A stretch of 32,000 bases of DNA from Candidatus Heimdallarchaeota archaeon. Its GTDB lineage: Archaea > Asgardarchaeota > Heimdallarchaeia > Heimdallarchaeales > Kariarchaeaceae. The translations under genes were made by a program, and so were the position numbers. The stretch is taken from assembly GCA_030149205.1 (NCBI GenBank), contig JASBSB010000007.1, positions 30,001 to 62,000 of the forward strand, given 5' to 3'. Under the pieces are notes generated by a model. That model had not been told where the DNA came from and made no database searches. It worked only from the letters and a program-made list of their open reading frames with translations. Positions 10,453 through 28,757 of the stretch are shown in pieces (within the stretch, counting starts at the first letter, position 1; the number at the start of each line of letters is the position of its first letter).

Positions 10453-11199
10453 ATGGTGGATCCCCTCAAAATTCTAGAAGAAGAGAAGACATACCTTCAA
10501 AATAATGAACCTACCTTTAATCAGTCAGATGCCACAGGGAGAGTATTCACTGGAAAGGTAGGCAGGCTTCAATCTGGAGAAGATATACAAGTTCAAATTA
10601 CCTTTCCTGATTTTTATCCGATTGAAAAGCCAATTATTAAGGTATTAACTGATATGGAGCATCCAAATGTGAATACTAATTCATCCTTAGATCTTGCAAT
10701 ACTTGACTACTGGGAACCAGACTTCAGGATAAAGAATGTTCTTGGGGATGTAAGGAGACTGTTTATCAGGAGTAAAAAGGTCATAAAAATCAAGCCACAA
10801 AAAAGTGTAGAGCCGGTTTCGGTAAATCCACAAACGATTCAGTTGGTAGGGGAAATTGAGACCCTACAGAGACAAATTACAGAACTTGATAAGCAGATTC
10901 AGGAGAAGAAAATTACTGTAATGAATAAACAAGGAGTATCCGTACAGTCTGCAATTAAGGTCTCATTAAAGGATGAGTTGGATTGTGAATTTCATGCTTT
11001 GAATGACCTGTTGGAACTCTTAGATTATAAATTTGAGGACGCTGAAATTGATCAGACAGATTATTTCAGGTTGTATAAGCACTACACAAAGGAACACTAT
11101 AAGCTTTCTGAACAGTTGAAAAGCTTAAATTCCGAAAAACAGGAGAACGAAGAATATGTCGTATCAAACAAGAAAGAAAAAAGACTCATTAGATCTTAG
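10453..11199 (+). CDS. vps23: ESCRT-I Vps23/TSG101-like protein (UEV + coiled coil + steadiness-box-like C-terminus)
   Basis: UBC fold (ITFPDFYPIEKP...HPNVNTNSSLDLAILDYW) with the catalytic Cys replaced by Asp, then a coiled coil (GEIETLQRQITELDKQIQEKK) and a helical hairpin. First gene of the ESCRT cluster. Confidence 0.85.
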   Translation: MVDPLKILEEEKTYLQNNEPTFNQSDATGRVFTGKVGRLQSGEDIQVQITFPDFYPIEKPIIKVLTDMEHPNVNTNSSLDLAILDYWEPDFRIKNVLGDVRRLFIRSKKVIKIKPQKSVEPVSVNPQTIQLVGEIETLQRQITELDKQIQEKKITVMNKQGVSVQSAIKVSLKDELDCEFHALNDLLELLDYKFEDAEIDQTDYFRLYKHYTKEHYKLSEQLKSLNSEKQENEEYVVSNKKEKRLIRS

Positions 11200-11785
11200 A
11201 GCGGATTTATACTCTGCAATTGCCACAATGGACAAATTAAGTTCACATTTTGACAAGGGAATGGTTGAGGAGACCCTTTATAGAAGACAGTTGAAATCTG
11301 CGATATCTACAGTATTTAAGGCGCAACATGAGTTAGAACAGGATGGTTTTGATATAAATCAATTCATTGAAGAAAACTCCTTAGAAAGCAAATTCCCTAA
11401 CGGGATGAAGAGATTGAATCTGATGGAGGGATTGGAATCAGACGAAGAGACAACTTTATCGCTTGATACCTTGAAAAAGCTCCCTGAGAAGACTGCGGAT
11501 TTTGTTGCTCATTCAATAGAGTTGATTGATCTATTAAGATTAAAATCACTTGCCAGGGTAGAGTTGATAGTACCCCTGTTGGATGAACTTTACAATGTGG
11601 TCTTGAAATTCCCTACTATGGGGTCTGAACATTGGACAGCAGTTGAAATTAGAGGATGGAGAGATGTTTTGGTTGATGAACCACCAAGTAAGGTACTCTC
11701 AGAAGAAGATGTTGAGAGACTTGAATTTGAGGTATCAAGATGGCTCAATGAATTCAGAACCAATATTAAAAATCTTGAAGTGTGA
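11156..11785 (+). CDS. vps28: ESCRT-I Vps28
   Basis: ADLYSAIATMDKL...Y resembles the Vps28 N-terminal core, and FVAHSIELIDLLRL...IVPLLDEL...W...RLEFEV resembles the C-terminal four-helix bundle. An AGGAG RBS lies about 10 nt upstream; the gene overlaps vps23 by 44 nt. Confidence 0.88.
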   Translation: MSYQTRKKKDSLDLRADLYSAIATMDKLSSHFDKGMVEETLYRRQLKSAISTVFKAQHELEQDGFDINQFIEENSLESKFPNGMKRLNLMEGLESDEETTLSLDTLKKLPEKTADFVAHSIELIDLLRLKSLARVELIVPLLDELYNVVLKFPTMGSEHWTAVEIRGWRDVLVDEPPSKVLSEEDVERLEFEVSRWLNEFRTNIKNLEV

Positions 11786-11791
11786 AGTCCC

Positions 11792-12511
11792 ATGGGTTTA
11801 AGAGACATTGAACGTAAGATACGCATCAAGAGTGCATTTCAACAAAAAGAAGGAGAGCTTCTTTTAGAGGAGCTTGATCAACTGATTAAGAACTATAAAA
11901 TTTTGGAAAAGCAGCTTAAATCATTTGAGAAGAAACATAAAAAGGATATTAAGGAGAACAAGGAATACTACCAAAAAATAAGTGAGTTAAGACGTGAGCT
12001 TGGATTACCTGAAGAGATTGGTGTGTATGACTGGAAGGAATCACCCAGTTTCATGGACAAGATCACTGGCAAGGGGTATTTTAACCAGCTTGCTCAAGAG
12101 ATATTAGAAGTTGGTAAATCAAGTGTAAGAGACTCTGGTGGGTTAGTATCACTGGCAGAGTTGGTTTTAAGGGTAAATAAAGTCAGACCTGGAAAGTTGG
12201 TTTCTCCGCAAGATGTAGTCAGAGCAGTTGAAAGTCTGGATAAGAATGGCTTGATATCAGGGATCAGAGAGCTTGAGTCTGGTGTAAAATTAGTGGAGTT
12301 TGTTAGTGTAAGTCTTTCACCAGATCAGGAGAAAGTCTTTAGTCTCGCTTCTCGAACCGGATTTATCACCATGGAACAACTCATTCTCAAATCTAAATGG
12401 CCTCTGGAAAGAGCAAAAAGGGTATTAGATGACCTGGTTGAAGATGGGATAGCTTTGATAGATGAAACCTATTCCGAGGGAACAAAATATTGGTTCCCAT
12501 CATTAGGATAA
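11792..12511 (+). CDS. vps22: ESCRT-II Vps22/SNF8 (EAP30 domain, Vps22/36-like)
   Basis: MGLRDIERK N-terminal helix, FEKKHKKDIKEN...LGL, FNQLAQEILEVG...SGGLVSL, and two winged helices ending YWFP. Confidence 0.9.
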   Translation: MGLRDIERKIRIKSAFQQKEGELLLEELDQLIKNYKILEKQLKSFEKKHKKDIKENKEYYQKISELRRELGLPEEIGVYDWKESPSFMDKITGKGYFNQLAQEILEVGKSSVRDSGGLVSLAELVLRVNKVRPGKLVSPQDVVRAVESLDKNGLISGIRELESGVKLVEFVSVSLSPDQEKVFSLASRTGFITMEQLILKSKWPLERAKRVLDDLVEDGIALIDETYSEGTKYWFPSLG

Positions 12512-12594
12512 AAAACGATTTTTACTCATTCACATCCATTAAATTAAGAAAGAATTAAATTAGACTTTGTTCATATTGATATTAGGAGTTTTCT

Positions 12595-13740
12595 GTGAGC
12601 ACCAATCTTTATGCAAGAGCCCAATTACTGGCACAGTCTGCCGTTCAGGCAGATAATGCCGGAGACCATGGAACAGCCCTCTCAAAGTACTTACAGGCAG
12701 CGGAAATACTGTTAGAGATGGCTAAATACACAAACAACCCCCGATTGGTTCAGACATATGAGGGGAGAGCACAGTCATATATTGACAGGGCGAAGATGTT
12801 AAAGAAGCTGAAAACCGAAAAACCTCGGAAGGCTAAATCTCAATCTGATGAGGATGACGACGAGATAAATTCAACGATAGAGGAAGCCATCCTATCTACC
12901 AAACCGGATGTCACGTTAACTGATGTTGCTGGTTTAGCAGATGTCAAAACAGCCTTACGAGAGGCAATAGTGTTACCTCTTATGAGACCAGATCTATTCA
13001 CAGGAGCAAGAAGACCATGGAAGGGGATCTTGTTATTTGGACCACCTGGGTGTGGAAAGACATTAATTGCAAAGGCAACCGCTGGAGATATAGAAGCAAC
13101 ATTTTTTAATGTATCAGCTGCAAATTTGGTGAGCAAGTGGTTAGGGGAGTCTGAGAAACTTGTGAAAAAACTTTACGATATGGCTGTTGAGAAACAACCA
13201 AGTATTATTTTTATTGACGAGATAGATTCTCTTACCCAATCCAGAGGTGGTACAGGAGAGAATGATGCTATGAGACGTATCAAGACTCAGCTTTTGACAA
13301 GTATGGAGGGGTTAACAAGTTCTTCAGACCAGAGGGTTGTAACAATTGGAGCTACAAACATACCTTGGGAAATTGACACAGCGTTCAGAAGAAGGTTTGA
13401 AAGGAGGATATTTGTTCCAGTTCCTGATTTGGCAGCTCGAAGAAAGATTTTTGAGTTGAACACTGAGGGCATCAAATTAGATTCCTCTGTTGATTTTGAT
13501 CAATTAAGTGCTCTCACAGAGGAATATTCTGGTTCTGATATTGCCAACATCTGTCGAGAGGCCATTTTTATCCCAATTAGAGAATTAGATACCAGTGGAG
13601 CATTCAAGGATAAATCCATTAAGGCCAGGGATGTCACTCAACAAGACTTTCTTAGTGCTTTAAACAACGTTAAAGCCTCAGTTAGTCAACGAGAGCTGAA
13701 ACGGTTTGTTGACTGGAATGAGGAATATGGGGCTGGTTAA
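12595..13740 (+). CDS. vps4: Vps4 AAA+ ATPase with N-terminal MIT domain
   Basis: MIT domain (AVQADNAGDHGTALSKYLQAAE), Walker A GPPGCGKT, pore loop SKWLGESEK, Walker B FIDEID, Arg fingers FRRRF. GTG start after AGGAG. Confidence 0.96.
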   Translation: MSTNLYARAQLLAQSAVQADNAGDHGTALSKYLQAAEILLEMAKYTNNPRLVQTYEGRAQSYIDRAKMLKKLKTEKPRKAKSQSDEDDDEINSTIEEAILSTKPDVTLTDVAGLADVKTALREAIVLPLMRPDLFTGARRPWKGILLFGPPGCGKTLIAKATAGDIEATFFNVSAANLVSKWLGESEKLVKKLYDMAVEKQPSIIFIDEIDSLTQSRGGTGENDAMRRIKTQLLTSMEGLTSSSDQRVVTIGATNIPWEIDTAFRRRFERRIFVPVPDLAARRKIFELNTEGIKLDSSVDFDQLSALTEEYSGSDIANICREAIFIPIRELDTSGAFKDKSIKARDVTQQDFLSALNNVKASVSQRELKRFVDWNEEYGAG

Positions 13741-13742
13741 CT

Positions 13743-14432
13743 ATGTCCATAAGAGAAAAGGTGAGGAAGAAGCAAGAGGAGCTAAAAGAGGATTCGGCAC
13801 CCAGTATCGTTGAGGAGAAAATAGAGGAGAAGACATCTACAGAGGGTACAAAAACCAAACCAGAGAAAGTGGAGAAGAAAGAATCAAAGACTGAGAATCA
13901 AGAAATCAAAGAACTCTCTTTTGAGGATACGCTCCCCGCATGGGTAAACAAGCCTTGGATGTTTGTGACTCCAAAAAAAGAGGCTCAAAAGGACTCATGG
14001 GTTGATTCTTGGAAACTTGTGATATTGGATTTTAGCAAATTTTACACGCAACACATCATTAACATCTATGAGGTAAGGAAGAAACACCCGTTTACTCATA
14101 AGGACACTAAACGTTCCCTGAAAGATGATCAGCTCGTATTTATAATTGATAAAATGCAGGAAGAAGGTTTGGCCAAATGGTTATCCTCAAAAAAAATTCG
14201 GGCCCGAATCTATTACAAAACTATTGAGCAGTGGGCAGAAGAGATATACAATGATTTGTTTGAGAGTGGAAAACTTGTGGAGGTATTAACTTTGCAAGAA
14301 TTTAAGCTGATGAACAAAGAATGGAGTAACCTTCCAGATGCTGACTTTCAAGAGATATTTAAACTATTTGTAGAGGCAAAAAAGGCAAAGTACGTGACAA
14401 AAGAAAGAGATACTATTCAGTTCATATTTTGA
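13743..14432 (+). CDS. vps25: ESCRT-II Vps25 with a charged N-terminal extension
   Basis: LPAWVNKPWMF...QKDSWVDSWKLVILDF matches the Vps25 N-terminal pattern. IYYKTIEQWAEEIY...VLTLQE and a C-terminal wHTH follow. Confidence 0.88.
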   Translation: MSIREKVRKKQEELKEDSAPSIVEEKIEEKTSTEGTKTKPEKVEKKESKTENQEIKELSFEDTLPAWVNKPWMFVTPKKEAQKDSWVDSWKLVILDFSKFYTQHIINIYEVRKKHPFTHKDTKRSLKDDQLVFIIDKMQEEGLAKWLSSKKIRARIYYKTIEQWAEEIYNDLFESGKLVEVLTLQEFKLMNKEWSNLPDADFQEIFKLFVEAKKAKYVTKERDTIQFIF

Positions 14433-14473
14433 GTCATGAATATAGTAATATAAATGGTCAACTATCTCTAATA

Positions 14474-14520
14474 AAAAGAAACCTTATTTAAGTTGAGAGT
14501 ATATTATTAATTACAGAGGT
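14474..14520 (+). promoter_or_regulatory. Candidate internal promoter (BRE-TATA) and RBS for the two ESCRT-III genes
   Basis: AAAAGAAAC followed by CTTATTTAA (14483-14491), and GAGGT at 14516-14520 before the TTG start at 14529, inside a 96-bp gap. Confidence 0.35.
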
Positions 14521-14528
14521 AAATTAAC

Positions 14529-15149
14529 TTGGTCAGAGATTTATTAAGCTGGCTTGTGTCTGGAAAGTCAGACAAATCCAACAGATCACACATAACTAAT
14601 CTCAAAGTTGTCGAAAGAAGGTTGGAGAGATCGAAAAAGAAGCTTGAGAACAAGGAAAGACAGAACGAGAGAAAGATCAGAACAGCACTTCAGAAGGGAG
14701 ATATGGAGGCAGCCAGACTCTATGCCAATGATGTAGTAAGATCAAGAAAATGGGCAAGGGGGTATCAAAGTCTAGTTTCTAAGATCGATGGCCTTATTTT
14801 TAAATTAGAGAGAACAGATGCAGTTCAATCACTTGCTGGAGAGATGCGAAGTGTTGCAAACAGCCTTCGAGAAGCTAGTGCTGCCTTAAATATGGAAGGG
14901 CTTGATGATACCGTCAAAGATTTGGAAAGCACAATGGAAAATGTAGATATTGCAAGTGACATGATGGAAGACTCAGTTGATGGTCTGTTTTCAGCAGATA
15001 TTGATGAATCAGAGGTTGATAACCTACTGGGCGAATATGGTGCAGAAGTTGGAGTCACTGCCTCCACTGGACTTCCAACAGCCCCAGTAACGAACTCTAA
15101 GGTCTCAGACTTAGAAAATGAGATCGAACAACTAAGGAAGGACGAGTAA
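14529..15149 (+). CDS. vps2: ESCRT-III, Vps2/Vps24/Vps46 (CHMP1-3) class
   Basis: Amphipathic N-terminus LLSWLVSGK, helical hairpin (KKLENKERQNERKIRTALQKGDMEAARLYANDVVR), acidic C-half and a C-terminal MIM-like helix. Confidence 0.88.
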   Translation: MVRDLLSWLVSGKSDKSNRSHITNLKVVERRLERSKKKLENKERQNERKIRTALQKGDMEAARLYANDVVRSRKWARGYQSLVSKIDGLIFKLERTDAVQSLAGEMRSVANSLREASAALNMEGLDDTVKDLESTMENVDIASDMMEDSVDGLFSADIDESEVDNLLGEYGAEVGVTASTGLPTAPVTNSKVSDLENEIEQLRKDE

Positions 15150-15150
15150 A

Positions 15151-15822
15151 GTGGCAAAAAGGTTAAAAAATTGGTTATTTGGGAAAAGTGCAGATCAAGA
15201 CAAGGAGTCAGAGGCTATTGCTCAACTCAAGAAACGGTTAAATAAATATGAAATCGAGTCAAGAAACCTTTTGACCAAATCTGAAGAGGAGAAAAATCTA
15301 GCTAGAAGGATGGTCGCAGAGGGTAATAAGAGTGGGGCACGGCAGGCGTTAAAGAGGGCAAACCTCTATCAACAGAAGTACAATAAGACTCAGAATCTGA
15401 TGTTAAATCTGCATACACAGGTAGAGACTATATCCTCCGCTAAGGATACTGTTGAGACTGTTAAAGCATTAAAATCCGGCTCAGAGATTGTAGAAACCTC
15501 AATTGGTGAGATCAACAAGATTGATGCAGACAGAGTAATGATCGAGTTGGAAGAGCAAAGAGACAGACTAAATGTTGTAAATGAGGCTTTATCAGACATC
15601 TCAGGCATTGATATGGAACTTGAGGATGATTATGCAGACAACATTGAAAGCCAGTTAGAAGCTTTAGAGATGGAAGTGGAATCCAAGAAACATGGGGAGC
15701 TTCCAGAAGCCGGTACCAAGACAGTCGATTGGGAAGCTGGTGAGGAGAAGAAAGAGGAAAAAGGAAAGGGAGACCTGGAGAATGAACTTGAATCATTAAA
15801 GAAAGAACTTGAAGGAAAATAG
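15151..15822 (+). CDS. snf7: ESCRT-III, Snf7/Vps20/Vps60 (CHMP4-7) class
   Basis: N-terminal RLKNWLFGK, GNKSGARQALKRANLYQQ, ETVKALKSG, IDADRVMIELEEQ and an acidic tail. Confidence 0.9.
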   Translation: MAKRLKNWLFGKSADQDKESEAIAQLKKRLNKYEIESRNLLTKSEEEKNLARRMVAEGNKSGARQALKRANLYQQKYNKTQNLMLNLHTQVETISSAKDTVETVKALKSGSEIVETSIGEINKIDADRVMIELEEQRDRLNVVNEALSDISGIDMELEDDYADNIESQLEALEMEVESKKHGELPEAGTKTVDWEAGEEKKEEKGKGDLENELESLKKELEGK

Positions 15823-21918: not shown

Positions 21919-22758
21919 ATGACAGTACTTGGAATTATTGGTCTTGTCTTGAGCTTTTTTATAGGAGCTTTGATTGGTGTAGCTGTTGCACCAGGTAATC
22001 CGATCGTCTGGGTTGGAATCGGGTTAGGTCTTGCACTTTTCTACCTGTTGGCTTCGGTCAAGGTGGTGTTTGAATATGAAAGGGGAATTGTCTTTAGAGT
22101 GGGAAAATTTGCAAGTTTGGCAGAACCTGGTTTAAATTTACTTTTACCTATTGTTGAGACATTGCAGAAGGTTTCAACCAGAATTCAGGTTGCTGATGTC
22201 CCACCACAGGAAATTATAAGCAGAGATAATGTTCCAATTAACATAAATGCAGTTGCGTATTACAAAGTTGAGGATCCAATTAAAGCAATATTGGATGTTG
22301 AGAACTTTCGAGCCGCAACTTTTCAAATTGCACAGACCACATTAAGATCTGTTGTCGGTCAGCATGAGATGGATCAGGTCTTAATTCACAGAGATCAACT
22401 TAATGCAACCTTGCAAGAAATCATTGATAAGGAGACTGATGCCTGGGGAATTAAGGTAAATCTGGTCGAAATAAAAGATGTTGAGTTACCCCAGAACCTA
22501 AAGAGGGCGATGGCTAAACAAGCAGAGGCAGAGAGGGAAAGAAGAGCAAGAATTATTCTGGCAACAGGTGAGTTAGAAGCCTCTGAAAAGTTAGCTCTCG
22601 CAGGTAAGAAGATGACAGATGACCCCGGTGCATTACAGATCCGTATGATTCAAGCGATGCAAGAGATTAGTGTTGAGAAAAACTCAACGATCCTCTTCCC
22701 CTATCCATTTGAAATTGGTAACATTTTCAAGAAGCTATTTGATGGAAAAAGCACTTAG
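21919..22758 (+). CDS. Stomatin/slipin-type SPFH (band 7) protein
   Basis: Hydrophobic N-terminus, EYERGIVFRVG, QIAQTTLRSVVG, AMAKQAEAERERRA, and a C-terminal IFFPxP-like motif (ILFPYP). Confidence 0.95.
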   Translation: MTVLGIIGLVLSFFIGALIGVAVAPGNPIVWVGIGLGLALFYLLASVKVVFEYERGIVFRVGKFASLAEPGLNLLLPIVETLQKVSTRIQVADVPPQEIISRDNVPININAVAYYKVEDPIKAILDVENFRAATFQIAQTTLRSVVGQHEMDQVLIHRDQLNATLQEIIDKETDAWGIKVNLVEIKDVELPQNLKRAMAKQAEAERERRARIILATGELEASEKLALAGKKMTDDPGALQIRMIQAMQEISVEKNSTILFPYPFEIGNIFKKLFDGKST

Positions 22759-23982: not shown

Positions 23983-24114
23983 TCTGTTTCATAAGATGAA
24001 TCTATTCCTTTTATTTATAGTATGTTTTCCACAAAAAAATTAGAGATATTTTGTATGAAAATTCTGTTTGTCTCGCGTCGACAAATTAATGTATAACATT
24101 AATAATAGGTTTGT

Positions 24115-25611: not shown

Positions 25612-26613
25612 TTATAACTTTGCTCCACAAGATCCACAGAATTTTGCTTCAGCTGATACATGATTTCCACAGTTCACACAAAATTTTTCTTTCCCTTTAA
25701 GTTCATCATCAGTTGGGTCACCACAGGAGGGGCAGAATTTTGCAGCTGGAGAGAACATTGCTGAGCATTGATTGCATTTTATCATAACTTCTTCTGGTTT
25801 TGCAGCACCGGATTTGATTTGATCTGCTTTTCTCATCATTTCAGGCATCAAGAATGCTGTAGCCCCAAGCCCAGCTGCAGAATCACTGGGGAGTGCACCT
25901 GCTACATCTTTCATTGCAGAAAATGTTTGAATCTGATTTACATCAACACCAGATCTCATCCAGAAAAGTCTATCACGATATTCAGGAGTCGTATCTAATC
26001 CTGCGAAGTTTACGTTCTTCACACCGATTCCAAAATTCTTAAGATCTTTGTCAACAAGCTTCTCAACGTCCTTTGATGTTTTGGTAGATTCTTTCATCAC
26101 ATCGACAATGCTAAAATCTGAGAGTGACGAAATAAGCTGTTCCTGGAAAAATGATTTGAAAAATTCTTCAAAGCTGTTTTGTGAGAAGAGGTTTCTGTTT
26201 CCAACAATTTCCATTGCAAATTTTACAGGATCTGTGACATGATAAATATAATCGCCATAAAATTGTAGAGGAGCTAATTCTTTGGTCTGACTTCTACCAC
26301 CGAACTTTGCTCGGAAATCAGCTGTAGAAACAAATATTACCTCTGCATGGAAGGGATTTTTGTCATATCCTTTGATTGCTGATAACACTCTTGAAAGATA
26401 GGGGATGTTGTCGGTTTTTAGAACGTAATTACCGGGGGTAAATACATCATATACCTTCCCTTCTTGCATAAAAACTGCAACTTGATTAGGTTTGACAGTT
26501 AAATTATCTCCCCACTGAAGACGGTCTCTTGGGTGTCTCCAAACAATCTGTTGTCCAGATTGATCTAACCATTCAATAATTTCTGGCATAATCTCATCTT
26601 TAAATATTAACAT
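25612..26613 (-). CDS. SPFH-domain protein with C-terminal double zinc ribbon (YdjI-like)
   Basis: IVWRHP...GDNLTVKPNQVAVF...DVFTPGNYVLKTDNIP...PFHAEVIFV is the soluble YdjI-type SPFH pattern. The C-terminus has CNQC/CPSC and CVNC/CGSC. No TM segment is seen. Confidence 0.85.
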   Translation of the reverse strand: MLIFKDEIMPEIIEWLDQSGQQIVWRHPRDRLQWGDNLTVKPNQVAVFMQEGKVYDVFTPGNYVLKTDNIPYLSRVLSAIKGYDKNPFHAEVIFVSTADFRAKFGGRSQTKELAPLQFYGDYIYHVTDPVKFAMEIVGNRNLFSQNSFEEFFKSFFQEQLISSLSDFSIVDVMKESTKTSKDVEKLVDKDLKNFGIGVKNVNFAGLDTTPEYRDRLFWMRSGVDVNQIQTFSAMKDVAGALPSDSAAGLGATAFLMPEMMRKADQIKSGAAKPEEVMIKCNQCSAMFSPAAKFCPSCGDPTDDELKGKEKFCVNCGNHVSAEAKFCGSCGAKL

Positions 26614-26742
26614 AAAAGTTTAATCAGGGAATATAAGCAATTATGCCAACTATCATGAACTTTTTCACACAATTTCATATTCCACAGTGAATTTATTACC
26701 CAATCCGAGTAATATTTTTATGCTTTCTTGAAATCGGCATTT

Positions 26743-27756
26743 ATGTCTCAGATAGGTTTAGTGGAGGGAAATTGTCCCACGTGTTCTGCACCGACAAATG
26801 TTAATCCAGAGGATATCATTATAATCTGTGAGTTTTGTGGAACAGCGTTTTCAACATCTTTTAAGAAGATTGAGAATCACTTTATATTCCCTCCAAAAGC
26901 CGATTTACAAACAATTCAAACTGAGCTAATCGACAAAATCAATAAAAAGCTGAAATTTCGTGGTGTGAAGGTGAATCAAAGCATCACTTTAGAGAAGGTA
27001 TTCGTCCCTTTCTGGCTTGTGAAGCTTAAGGCAGATACACATTACGAAGGGTATAGACGAGAGTCCAGAACCAAGACAAGAACTGTCACAAGAAATGGTA
27101 AAACCGAGACTGAGACAGAGCATATCACGGTGTATGTTCCTGTATCAAGAAACATCAATGAGACCAGAATTATTCCGGTTCTGTCTAGAAGATCCAAGGC
27201 ATTATTCGGTGTTAAGGGTATTTCTAATAGACTCATTCAAAAGATAAACACAGAACAACCCATGAAATTTTCAAAAGACTTACTCCTTGATGAGGTTGAG
27301 AGAATCAAATTCTTGAAAGCTGAGCTGAACCAGTATGAGGGAAAAGAAACTGGTGAAACTGTTATACAGGATGAACACCGAAGCAGGGCATCAAAAGATA
27401 CCACAGAACTTTTTGATTGTAGAACTTCTGTAAATGTGTTAGAAACAATTTTATTACATTATCCAATTATAAATGCCGAGTATACTGTCAATCATAAGAC
27501 TTTTCGAGTTGTTTTGGATGGGACCACATCACAGATACTTAGTGCAGAATATCCTATTACTCTGAGATATAAATCACTGGCTGTTTCAATACTTAGTATT
27601 TTGGTGCTTGTTCCATTCATTGTTTATGCTTATTTGGAGCAGACTGGGCGAACAATTTCTGATGTCCTTCTTTTCATAACAGTAGTGGGAGGAGTAATAG
27701 CATTTTTCGTCAATTATAAACTGTGGCAAACAGAATCACGGGAGGTCTTAGCATGA
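26743..27756 (+). CDS. Zinc-ribbon membrane protein (YdjG-like), copy 1
   Basis: CPTC...CEFCG zinc ribbon, VFVPFW motif, HYPI...Y...VVLDGTTSQI motif, two C-terminal TM helices. ATG 26743 is preferred over TTG 26728. Confidence 0.7.
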   Translation: MSQIGLVEGNCPTCSAPTNVNPEDIIIICEFCGTAFSTSFKKIENHFIFPPKADLQTIQTELIDKINKKLKFRGVKVNQSITLEKVFVPFWLVKLKADTHYEGYRRESRTKTRTVTRNGKTETETEHITVYVPVSRNINETRIIPVLSRRSKALFGVKGISNRLIQKINTEQPMKFSKDLLLDEVERIKFLKAELNQYEGKETGETVIQDEHRSRASKDTTELFDCRTSVNVLETILLHYPIINAEYTVNHKTFRVVLDGTTSQILSAEYPITLRYKSLAVSILSILVLVPFIVYAYLEQTGRTISDVLLFITVVGGVIAFFVNYKLWQTESREVLA

Positions 27757-28757
27757 CGACACTTATAGATGTGAAATGTGAACAGTGTGGAGCAGACCTT
27801 CGTGTATCAGAAAATGCAACGATTGCAAAGTGTCCATATTGTAATTACTTTACACAACTAAAAGAGGTAAAGGAGACTGAAGAGAGATATCTGCTGACAG
27901 TAAACCATCAGATTGAGGATCTAGAAAAACTACTTGTTGGTGACTTACTCAAGGTTCCTACAGTACCTTCTTCAATAAGAAATTCAATTCAGATCATAAA
28001 TGCAAAGCTGGTTTACGAACCATACTTTGTTTCAACTGTACATGGAAACATGAAGTGGAGGGGTGAGGGAAGATCTGCAAACTACTCTTTTTCCTACGAG
28101 GGGGGATATCGAAACATTTCATTTTATCTTAAACCAGAGGCAGGTGTATTTGACGATTTTCAGATATTTGTTCAATATGCAGGAAATCGAAGAGAGGATG
28201 TTTTTCAAAACTACCTCCTTTCAACAGAGGGAAAAGAATTTTTTGCAGAGAGCACAGTTTCCTCAAGAGGTGGTGAAATAGAAAAGGAAGCCTTTGATTT
28301 TTCCCAGGCTGGTGAACGATCAGTAGGTTTTCTGAGGAATAAGCAGCTTAATTTGTTGAATCAAGAGATACAAAAAGTTCAAGATAAAGAAGAAAAATAT
28401 AGACTTCTGAACAATGAACTAATCTACGTTCCCTTCTGGATTGTTGATTTTGCCTATAAGAAGGGGGCAAAAACTAAGAAAGCAATTGTAGATGCCTCCA
28501 GCGGTGATACACTCATACTTGAAATTCCAAAAGGCAGGTTATTTATTATGACGCTGTTTTTTTCAGTTTTTATTTACTCTATGCTCATTGGTTTAACATT
28601 TTTGTTTGACCCAACCCTACTAATTGATATTTCAAATGATAAACTTCCTTTAGGTGTCAGATTTACTGGACCGATCTTCCTAATTATCTTTGTAGGATTG
28701 CTTATACAGACCATGACCTATCTTCTGAGGTCTACGTTTAAAGAAAGAAGACTTTAG
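27753..28757 (+). CDS. Zinc-ribbon membrane protein (YdjG-like), copy 2
   Basis: CEQCG...CPYC, VYEPYF, IYVPFW...IVDASSGDTL, two C-terminal TM helices. ATGA overlap with copy 1 and a GGAGGT RBS. Confidence 0.7.
   Translation: MTTLIDVKCEQCGADLRVSENATIAKCPYCNYFTQLKEVKETEERYLLTVNHQIEDLEKLLVGDLLKVPTVPSSIRNSIQIINAKLVYEPYFVSTVHGNMKWRGEGRSANYSFSYEGGYRNISFYLKPEAGVFDDFQIFVQYAGNRREDVFQNYLLSTEGKEFFAESTVSSRGGEIEKEAFDFSQAGERSVGFLRNKQLNLLNQEIQKVQDKEEKYRLLNNELIYVPFWIVDFAYKKGAKTKKAIVDASSGDTLILEIPKGRLFIMTLFFSVFIYSMLIGLTFLFDPTLLIDISNDKLPLGVRFTGPIFLIIFVGLLIQTMTYLLRSTFKERRL

Follow-up and report, generated by a model that had tools for sequence, protein, structure and literature searches.

An SPFH gene and a pair of zinc-ribbon membrane protein genes

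The stretch of DNA considered here, referred to as the window, comprises 32,000 nucleotides of Candidatus Heimdallarchaeota archaeon (GenBank assembly GCA_030149205.1, contig JASBSB010000007.1, positions 30,001 to 62,000 of the forward strand). The source genome (G000) is a 3.3-Mb assembly of 12 contigs that is 93.5% complete, and the window lies on contig 8. Positions 25612 to 28757 hold a module of three genes, one encoding an SPFH protein and two, transcribed divergently from it, encoding the zinc-ribbon membrane proteins G1 and G2. All three have candidate counterparts in the Bacillus subtilis sigma-W operon pspA-ydjGHI, also known as pspA-samGHI. The features of the module are as follows.

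25612-26613, minus strand: YdjI/SamI-type soluble SPFH protein (P0001), 333 amino acids, with an SPFH domain, a Gly/Ala-rich linker and a C-terminal double zinc ribbon
26614-26742 (129 bp): AT-rich spacer separating the divergently transcribed SPFH and G1 genes, with no open reading frame (ORF); presumed site of both promoters
26728-27756, plus strand: G1 (P0002), YdjG/SamG homologue; ORF of 342 amino acids, likely start ATG at 26743, giving 337 amino acids
27723-28757, plus strand: G2 (P0003), second and more divergent YdjG/SamG paralogue; ORF of 344 amino acids, likely start ATG at 27753, giving 334 amino acids

The original prediction, which was made from the sequence of the window alone, had described a soluble double-zinc-ribbon SPFH protein divergent from two coupled paralogues, each with a ribbon and two transmembrane helices, and the three ORFs were recovered at these coordinates with these properties. 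The SPFH protein possibly starts at the second methionine codon, at 26589, which would match the starts of its orthologues (MPxIIEW), and the lengths of G1 and G2 counted from their likely true starts agree with the database entries P0004 and P0008. The start codon of G2 (27753-27755) overlaps the TGA stop codon of G1 (27754-27756) in an ATGA motif, with GGGAGG located 8 nt upstream of the G2 start, and the two genes are translationally coupled in the window. ARAGORN found no tRNA gene between window positions 24000 and 30000.

Relationship of the three proteins to YdjI and YdjG

The SPFH protein matches the Pfam family Band_7_1 (PF13421) with E=6.9e-27 and 94.9 bits against a gathering cut-off of 24, and its residues 277-333 match the DZR (E=4.5e-10) and Zn_ribbon models. 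The maximum KD19 value is 1.08 and no segment reaches 1.6, so that no transmembrane segment is predicted and the protein is expected to be soluble. For comparison, a Bacillus pspA-ydjGHI locus was retrieved by using the ydjG cloning primer given in PMC8581546 as a query against a genome collection, and the sequences of PspA, YdjG, YdjH and YdjI were read from it (L004). The archaeal protein and YdjI are 24% identical over their full length (BLASTP E=1e-20), and their alignment (A5) reveals a shared domain order of SPFH domain, low-complexity Gly-rich linker and terminal zinc ribbon. The archaeal protein is a soluble SPFH protein of the YdjI type.

G1 and G2 matched no family in Pfam or NCBIfam. 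Each carries a CxxC...CxxC ribbon, a conserved (V/I)P(F/Y)W motif and a late P-x-W...DG/DA-x-(T/S)G motif, and hydropathy places two transmembrane segments at the C-terminus of either protein (279-306 and 307-333 in G1, 271-301 and 308-337 in G2). In G1, the single N-terminal zinc ribbon is followed by an alpha/beta domain, which is cytoplasmic and contains a long beta-hairpin, and then by the two-helix transmembrane hairpin (279-333). For the soluble domain (about residues 45-278 of G1) an NTF2-like/YpeB relationship has been reported. A direct pairwise comparison of the two proteins yields 18% identity with E=0.002, while the profiles of their families (A1 for G1 and A2 for G2, 20 orthologues each) match with E=2.4e-49. 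The same profiles were aligned by hhalign with a profile of 16 YdjG homologues, resulting in a 99.4% probability for the G1 family (E=1.3e-21, 248 columns) and 98.3% for the G2 family (E=2.1e-14, 241 columns). The aligned stretch of G1 begins at the second of the YdjG zinc ribbons and ends shortly before the YdjG transmembrane segment. BLASTP against YdjG alone detects G1 with E=8e-6, and its match to G2 is weak.

Structure prediction points in the same direction. The AlphaFold2 model of G1 has a predicted local distance difference test score (pLDDT) of 88, and in a comparison among predicted structures it matches an Atlas cluster from Bacillota named 'TFIIB-type zinc ribbon-containing protein', the NCBI name of YdjG, with a TM-score of 0.62/0.62 over 271 residues. 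Unnamed Atlas clusters from Thermoproteota, Bathyarchaeota, Thermoplasmatota, Bdellovibrionota and others are matched as well. Residues 87-152 of the model fold into a two-stranded beta-hairpin of exceptional length, with about 30 residues in either strand and many Thr, Arg and Glu residues. Foldseek returned no match to the PDB at E<=1e-3 for this model, and a wide VIA-align search recovered only the transmembrane helical hairpin, with Z up to 5.5. The best-ranked PDB entries for G1 were ring-forming or beta-hairpin proteins (SpoIIIAG, FliF, aerolysin-type toxins), at E>0.1 and TM-score <0.2, which is not evidence of relationship; the weak, non-significant fold neighbours of the hairpin are proteins that form rings or pores.

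The YdjG-like domain defines a large, unnamed family, given that an exhaustive profile search recovered 5380 representative clusters at E<=0.001; a word-indexed protein search, by comparison, retrieved just four relatives of G1 and seven of G2 and would wrongly imply a tiny family. Maximum-likelihood analysis placed the G2 sequences in a single clan (100/100) apart from G1 and Bacillus YdjG, and the groupings within the G2 subtree mirror those within the G1 subtree. G1 and G2 are thus ancient YdjG paralogues, whose duplication predates the sampled families and whose copies have been inherited together. The N-terminal part of both proteins, consisting of the zinc ribbon and the alpha/beta domain, is predicted to be cytoplasmic because a zinc ribbon is present and a signal peptide is absent. 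One G1 orthologue (L032:10547-11731) has an extra zinc ribbon after its two transmembrane helices, which fits a cytoplasmic C-terminus and hence an in-in topology of the hairpin.

Members of the family also occur in other settings. On a small metagenomic contig, a 489-residue protein (P0180, L055:1409-2878) combines an Arrestin_N domain (E=3.1e-9) with a YdjG-like domain (profile E=5.6e-39), and in a complete bacterial genome (L053:3641-7068) a stand-alone YdjG-like gene (P0240) is found near a divergent gene for a sigma-54 activator, the family to which PspF belongs. A role in anti-phage defence finds no support in the PADLOC models, whose sole match was a weak one to the zinc-ribbon region of G2 (E=0.0058).

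A YdjG/YdjI-type module in a phylum without PspA

A Psp system like that of pspA-ydjGHI has two hallmarks, a PspA/IM30 protein and a TPM membrane protein, and neither was found. The source genome contains no match to PspA (PF04012) and none to the TPM domain of YdjH (PF04536); control searches were positive in 9 of 14 and 8 of 14 named genomes, respectively. For PspA, the search was extended to 400 genomes of the phylum, most of them incomplete metagenome-assembled genomes (MAGs), and none has a match at E<=1e-5, which leaves the YdjI-type SPFH protein with no PspA to bring to the membrane.

The resemblance to the Bacillus operon (PMC8581546, PMC11237479, PMC13713150) therefore concerns two of its four components: a soluble Band_7_1 SPFH protein with a linker and a C-terminal ribbon corresponds to YdjI/SamI, a protein with a zinc ribbon, an alpha/beta domain and C-terminal transmembrane helices corresponds to YdjG/SamG, and the genes are clustered in either case. 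Unlike the Bacillus operon, the archaeal module has no pspA, in the genome or in the phylum, and no TPM protein (YdjH/SamH) in the genome; YdjG is duplicated as a fixed G1-G2 pair, the host is an archaeon, and in the window the SPFH gene diverges from the pair instead of following it. Whereas YdjG has two ribbons and one transmembrane helix, G1 and G2 have one ribbon and two transmembrane helices each. Their single ribbon aligns with the second ribbon of YdjG (residue 49 onward), so the differing ribbon number is an architectural difference within a homologous family.

A reduced set of this kind is not confined to archaea. Two distant relatives of G2 are encoded on bacterial-looking contigs directly behind a 465-residue Band_7_1 protein with multiple zinc ribbons, and no PspA or TPM gene adjoins them. 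These dyads (L049-L052) share with the archaeal module an SPFH gene, here directly upstream, and a YdjG-like gene without PspA or TPM beside them; they differ in that the YdjG-like protein is single and longer (427-430 amino acids) and the SPFH protein is longer and carries more zinc ribbons. The next gene in line, of 373 amino acids, is not YdjG-like. Because the bacterial-looking dyads stand without PspA and TPM beside them, the SPFH and YdjG-like proteins constitute a self-standing unit, of which the Bacillus operon with PspA and TPM is one elaboration.

Distribution of the pair and its linkage to the SPFH gene

A six-frame search of the phylum sample with G2 identified matches in 169 of the 400 genomes, with a strong dependence on the family (families are labelled f1, f3 and so forth, f1 being that of the source genome). 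The pair, as judged by the G2 query, is present in 30/31 genomes of f3, 19/19 of f12 and 6/6 of f14, in 1/135 of f20 and in none of the 22 of f5. In f1 it occurs in one of the 11 other genomes (G048) and in none of the three congeners. The module is thus accessory, present in about 40% of the sampled genomes of the phylum and in none of the three other species of the genus. The three same-genus genomes have only Tyw1-UPF0147 in common with the region, and the exact borders of gain or loss are not definable from them.

Gene order was compared in twenty regions of 9-20 kb that carry the G1-G2 pair and represent at least nine families. In all 19 loci whose contig accommodates both genes, G2 comes directly after G1 on the same strand; the twentieth locus is cut by the contig end. 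In one closed genome (G116, L035:9469-12774) two G1-type copies precede a single G2, and the SPFH gene lies about 1 Mb away. In 9 of the 20 loci a YdjI-type SPFH gene is no more than 10 kb away from the pair, and its placement varies: it is divergent from G1-G2 in the window and in two related loci (L027 and L028), directly precedes the pair in L036, and follows it in L045, where a gene for a helical protein intervenes, and in L033 and L034, where the helical protein gene and a CDF gene intervene. In the closed genomes G015 and G016 the SPFH gene is 7 kb from the pair, and in many f31 genomes a single contig carries both, separated by 8-58 kb.

The two components also tend to occur in the same genomes. 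The pair and strong Band_7_1 matches, respectively, are found in 30 and 23 of the 31 genomes of f3, 11 and 10 of the 12 of f7, 19 and 17 of the 19 of f12, and in all genomes of f4 (3/3 for both) and f14 (6/6 for both). In f1, both are present in one of 11, and the sole other genome with the pair (G048) is the sole other genome with the SPFH gene. The persistence of the linkage despite changing gene orders argues for a shared function of the pair and the SPFH protein.

Several elements of the original prediction hold up in the light of these results. It had proposed that the SPFH protein is a homologue of YdjI, as borne out by the full-length alignment and identical architecture, and that the paralogues are homologues of YdjG, in agreement with the profile alignments of both families and the G1 model. 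The proposed duplication of a YdjG-like gene is reflected in the invariant G1-G2 adjacency and in the G2 clan, and the absence of pspA and ydjH noticed at the locus extends to the genome and, for PspA, to the phylum.

A proposed membrane-anchored SPFH scaffold

We consider it reasonably probable that the module represents an archaeal counterpart, working without PspA, of the SamG/SamI (YdjG/YdjI) membrane module of Bacillus, that is, a membrane-anchored SPFH scaffold. G1 and G2 would form a hetero-oligomeric anchor, plausibly a heterodimer, whose cytoplasmic domains would keep the soluble SPFH protein at the membrane's inner face. There, its assembly could organise or stabilise a membrane patch and thereby contribute to fluidity, stress buffering or the assembly of client proteins, without PspA or YdjH. 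The anchoring proposal is modelled on Bacillus, where YdjI requires YdjG and YdjH to form membrane foci (PMC8581546) and where SamGHI acts apart from PspA: it has PspA-independent roles, and PspA is dispensable for the SamGHI developmental phenotypes (PMC13713150).

It is important to point out that several observations weigh against such a scaffold. In the B. subtilis two-hybrid analysis the TPM protein YdjH, not YdjG, is named as the direct partner of YdjI and PspA (PMC8581546), and Ravi et al. regard YdjH as the conserved partner of PspA (PMC11237479). Since the two-hybrid partner of YdjI is YdjH and the source genome has no TPM gene, direct anchoring of the SPFH protein by G1 and G2 is an extrapolation from the Bacillus system. 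Our reading of alignment A5 indicates that the YdjI type does not have the long coiled coil of basket-forming SPFH proteins (for this criterion see bioRxiv 10.1101/2025.11.06.686947). Two closed genomes (G116 and G368) have the SPFH gene far from the pair, and the overall co-occurrence counts (about 138 genomes with both components, about 31 with the pair only and about 7 with the SPFH gene only, according to our own reading of two search tables) are descriptive, coming from genomes that are related and mostly incomplete MAGs. A complex prediction of the SPFH protein with the soluble parts of G1 and G2 gave a score of 0.08, which is uninformative either way.

Alternatively, G1 and G2 could be membrane-tethered zinc-ribbon regulators or sensors that act without the SPFH protein, their adjacency to its gene being incidental. 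Databases do label YdjG homologues as TFIIB-type zinc-ribbon proteins, family members are encountered alone or in other contexts (P0240) or fused to an arrestin N-terminal domain (P0180), and deletion of ydjG or ydjH in B. subtilis alters cell shape whereas deletion of ydjI or pspA does not (PMC8581546). An incidental adjacency is difficult to reconcile with an SPFH linkage that recurs across families and gene orders, with the strong co-occurrence of the two components and with the sole other f1 genome with the pair being also the sole other one with the SPFH gene, and we regard this alternative as very improbable.

A helical protein as a possible fourth component

Clustering of all ORFs of the twenty loci brought to light a protein of about 185 amino acids, without a Pfam family, that recurs in 10 of them in three gene orders and whose gene sits between G2 and the SPFH gene in L033, L034 and L045. 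Representative genes, and the homologue of the source genome, are listed below.

L033:10735-11280: helical protein gene
L045:8845-9399: helical protein gene
L030:4874-5467: helical protein gene
G000:C1:197233-197745 (L047:1459-2019): homologue in the source genome (E=2.4e-13), on another contig and unlinked to the module

The protein is characterised by two conserved motifs, GY...R...D...R and DYGY..FFD, and is modelled as a four-helix bundle (pLDDT 90). It has no significant match in the Atlas and none in the PDB, where Foldseek returned nothing at E<=1e-3 and a hidden Markov model search of the PDB sequences gave nothing below E=0.09. The idea that it is a PspA or ESCRT-III protein in disguise finds no support, there being no PspA, Vipp1 or ESCRT-III chain among the fold matches listed.

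It may nevertheless belong to the module, probably as a further subunit or as a client. In a more far-reaching version of this idea, G1, G2 and the SPFH protein would position the helical protein at the membrane as their client or effector, in a four-part system in which it would be an unrelated functional stand-in for PspA. The clustering of its gene in half of the loci, its repeated location between G2 and the SPFH gene, the confident model and the unlinked homologue retained in the source genome are all compatible with this proposal. On the other hand, the membrane-binding role is a prediction for a protein without significant database or structural relatives, the gene is not within 10 kb of the pair in the other half of the loci, and its neighbours in the source genome are a DNA ligase gene and a YggU-like gene. 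We consider the four-part system possible, if doubtful.

Relationship to the ESCRT machinery

The window also encodes a complete cluster of ESCRT (endosomal sorting complex) components, which is separated from the SPFH gene by about 9.8 kb.

10453-15822: ESCRT-I/II/III/Vps4 cluster, with UEV/Vps23-like, Vps28, EAP30/Vps22, Vps4, Vps25 and two Snf7 genes
14529-15149 and 15151-15822: the two ESCRT-III (Snf7) genes

Nine unrelated genes on both strands lie between this cluster and the module, encoding an alpha/beta hydrolase, a topoisomerase, a YggS-like protein, MeaB, PhoU, a stomatin-type SPFH protein, a flavoprotein, ZPR1 and Tyw1 with UPF0147. The stomatin/Band_7-type protein (21919-22758, plus strand; E=2.8e-38) is a second SPFH protein of the window, whose gene is 3 kb away from the module and beside which no NfeD-like partner was noticed.

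The original prediction had proposed that the module may recruit the nearby ESCRT-III, in what would be an undescribed hybrid Psp-ESCRT system. The linkage did not withstand comparison. BLASTP searches with the seven ESCRT proteins of the window detected no ESCRT gene at 10 kb or less from the pair in the 20 other loci, including L027 and L028, the nearest relatives that carry the module, and in five closed genomes the pair lies 347 kb, 354 kb, 1.2 Mb, 135 kb and 128 kb away from the closest Snf7 gene. The proximity of about 10 kb is therefore peculiar to the window and not conserved.

Nor is the connection itself new. Makarova et al. count zinc-ribbon SPFH proteins as components of ESCRT loci in euryarchaea and propose an ancient partnership of SPFH proteins and ESCRT-III, citing YdjI and PspA as a sign of the old link (PMC10936438). 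The euryarchaeal 'Meth_adaptin' ESCRT loci resemble the present module in having archaeal SPFH proteins with zinc-ribbon domains; unlike the module, which is unlinked to ESCRT outside the window, they contain the SPFH genes inside ESCRT/Vps4 loci, and YdjG-like partners are not described for them in the available part of the study.

A connection between SPFH proteins and ESCRT does exist in Asgard archaea, but for another SPFH subtype, as judged from a gene pair in a genome of the same class (L066:4164-7837; G056, family f5). An EAP30/Vps22-like gene is followed there, after 11 nt, by a gene for a different soluble SPFH protein, and a convergent neighbour encodes a 588-residue protein with weak PCI and E3_UFM1_ligase matches. 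This subtype shares some Band_7_1 similarity with the SPFH protein of the window, in the form of a partial match (E of about 1e-11 to 1e-13); it differs in being coupled to the EAP30-like gene and in having no G1-G2 pair, for which the G2 query gave no match in f5 (0/22). Band_7_1 matches of equal weakness are present in f20 and f28.

What, then, of a hybrid system? It would have the SPFH protein, G1 and G2 recruit the Snf7/Vps2-type ESCRT-III proteins, the sole PspA-superfamily members of these genomes, to damaged membranes in the absence of PspA, which we judge improbable. Its attraction lies in the absence of PspA from all 400 genomes while its partner module is retained in about 40% of them, in the binding of PspA by Bacillus YdjI (PMC8581546), in the zinc-ribbon SPFH proteins of some euryarchaeal ESCRT loci and the ancient link proposed in PMC10936438, in the other Asgard SPFH subtype directly behind an EAP30 gene, and in the distance of about 10 kb in the window.

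These considerations are outweighed by the genomic context. Beyond the lack of linkage in all 20 other loci, the large separations in the closed genomes and the unrelated genes that intervene in the window, the module is dispensable across much of the phylum, as the virtual absence of the pair from f5 and f20 illustrates. These families would be expected to keep ESCRT, as Asgard genomes generally do. Similar SPFH and YdjG-like dyads reside on contigs of bacterial appearance, where the genes called within about 8 kb include none of ESCRT type, and the EAP30-linked SPFH protein is a different, weaker-scoring subtype of families without the pair. The genomic evidence from the window alone does not favour an SPFH-ESCRT-III link. 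That the Asgard YdjI-type SPFH protein and its G1/G2 anchors kept an ancestral role, namely placing a polymer of the ESCRT-III superfamily, now of the Snf7/Vps2 type, at the membrane, accordingly seems quite unlikely to us; if true, the SPFH-ESCRT-III partnership, represented in Bacillus by YdjI and PspA, would predate the split of PspA and Snf7 and would still work beside a eukaryote-like ESCRT machinery.

Conclusions

To our knowledge, studies of YdjG and YdjI (SamG and SamI) have been confined to Bacillus, where the two were treated solely as helpers of PspA. Our literature search found no paper describing an archaeal module without PspA and TPM and with a duplicated anchor. In the Asgard archaea, a PspA-less phylum, the same two parts form a conserved and self-standing module, in which the anchor is duplicated as a fixed pair and the presumed direct anchor, the TPM protein, is missing.

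With this module, the published proposal of an ancient partnership of SPFH proteins and ESCRT-III can be tested directly in the archaea most closely related to eukaryotes. The findings imply an independent function for the SPFH/YdjG core, in agreement with the dispensability of PspA for the SamGHI developmental phenotypes in Bacillus (PMC13713150), and the module would provide a clean system for asking what the role of a YdjI-type SPFH scaffold is.

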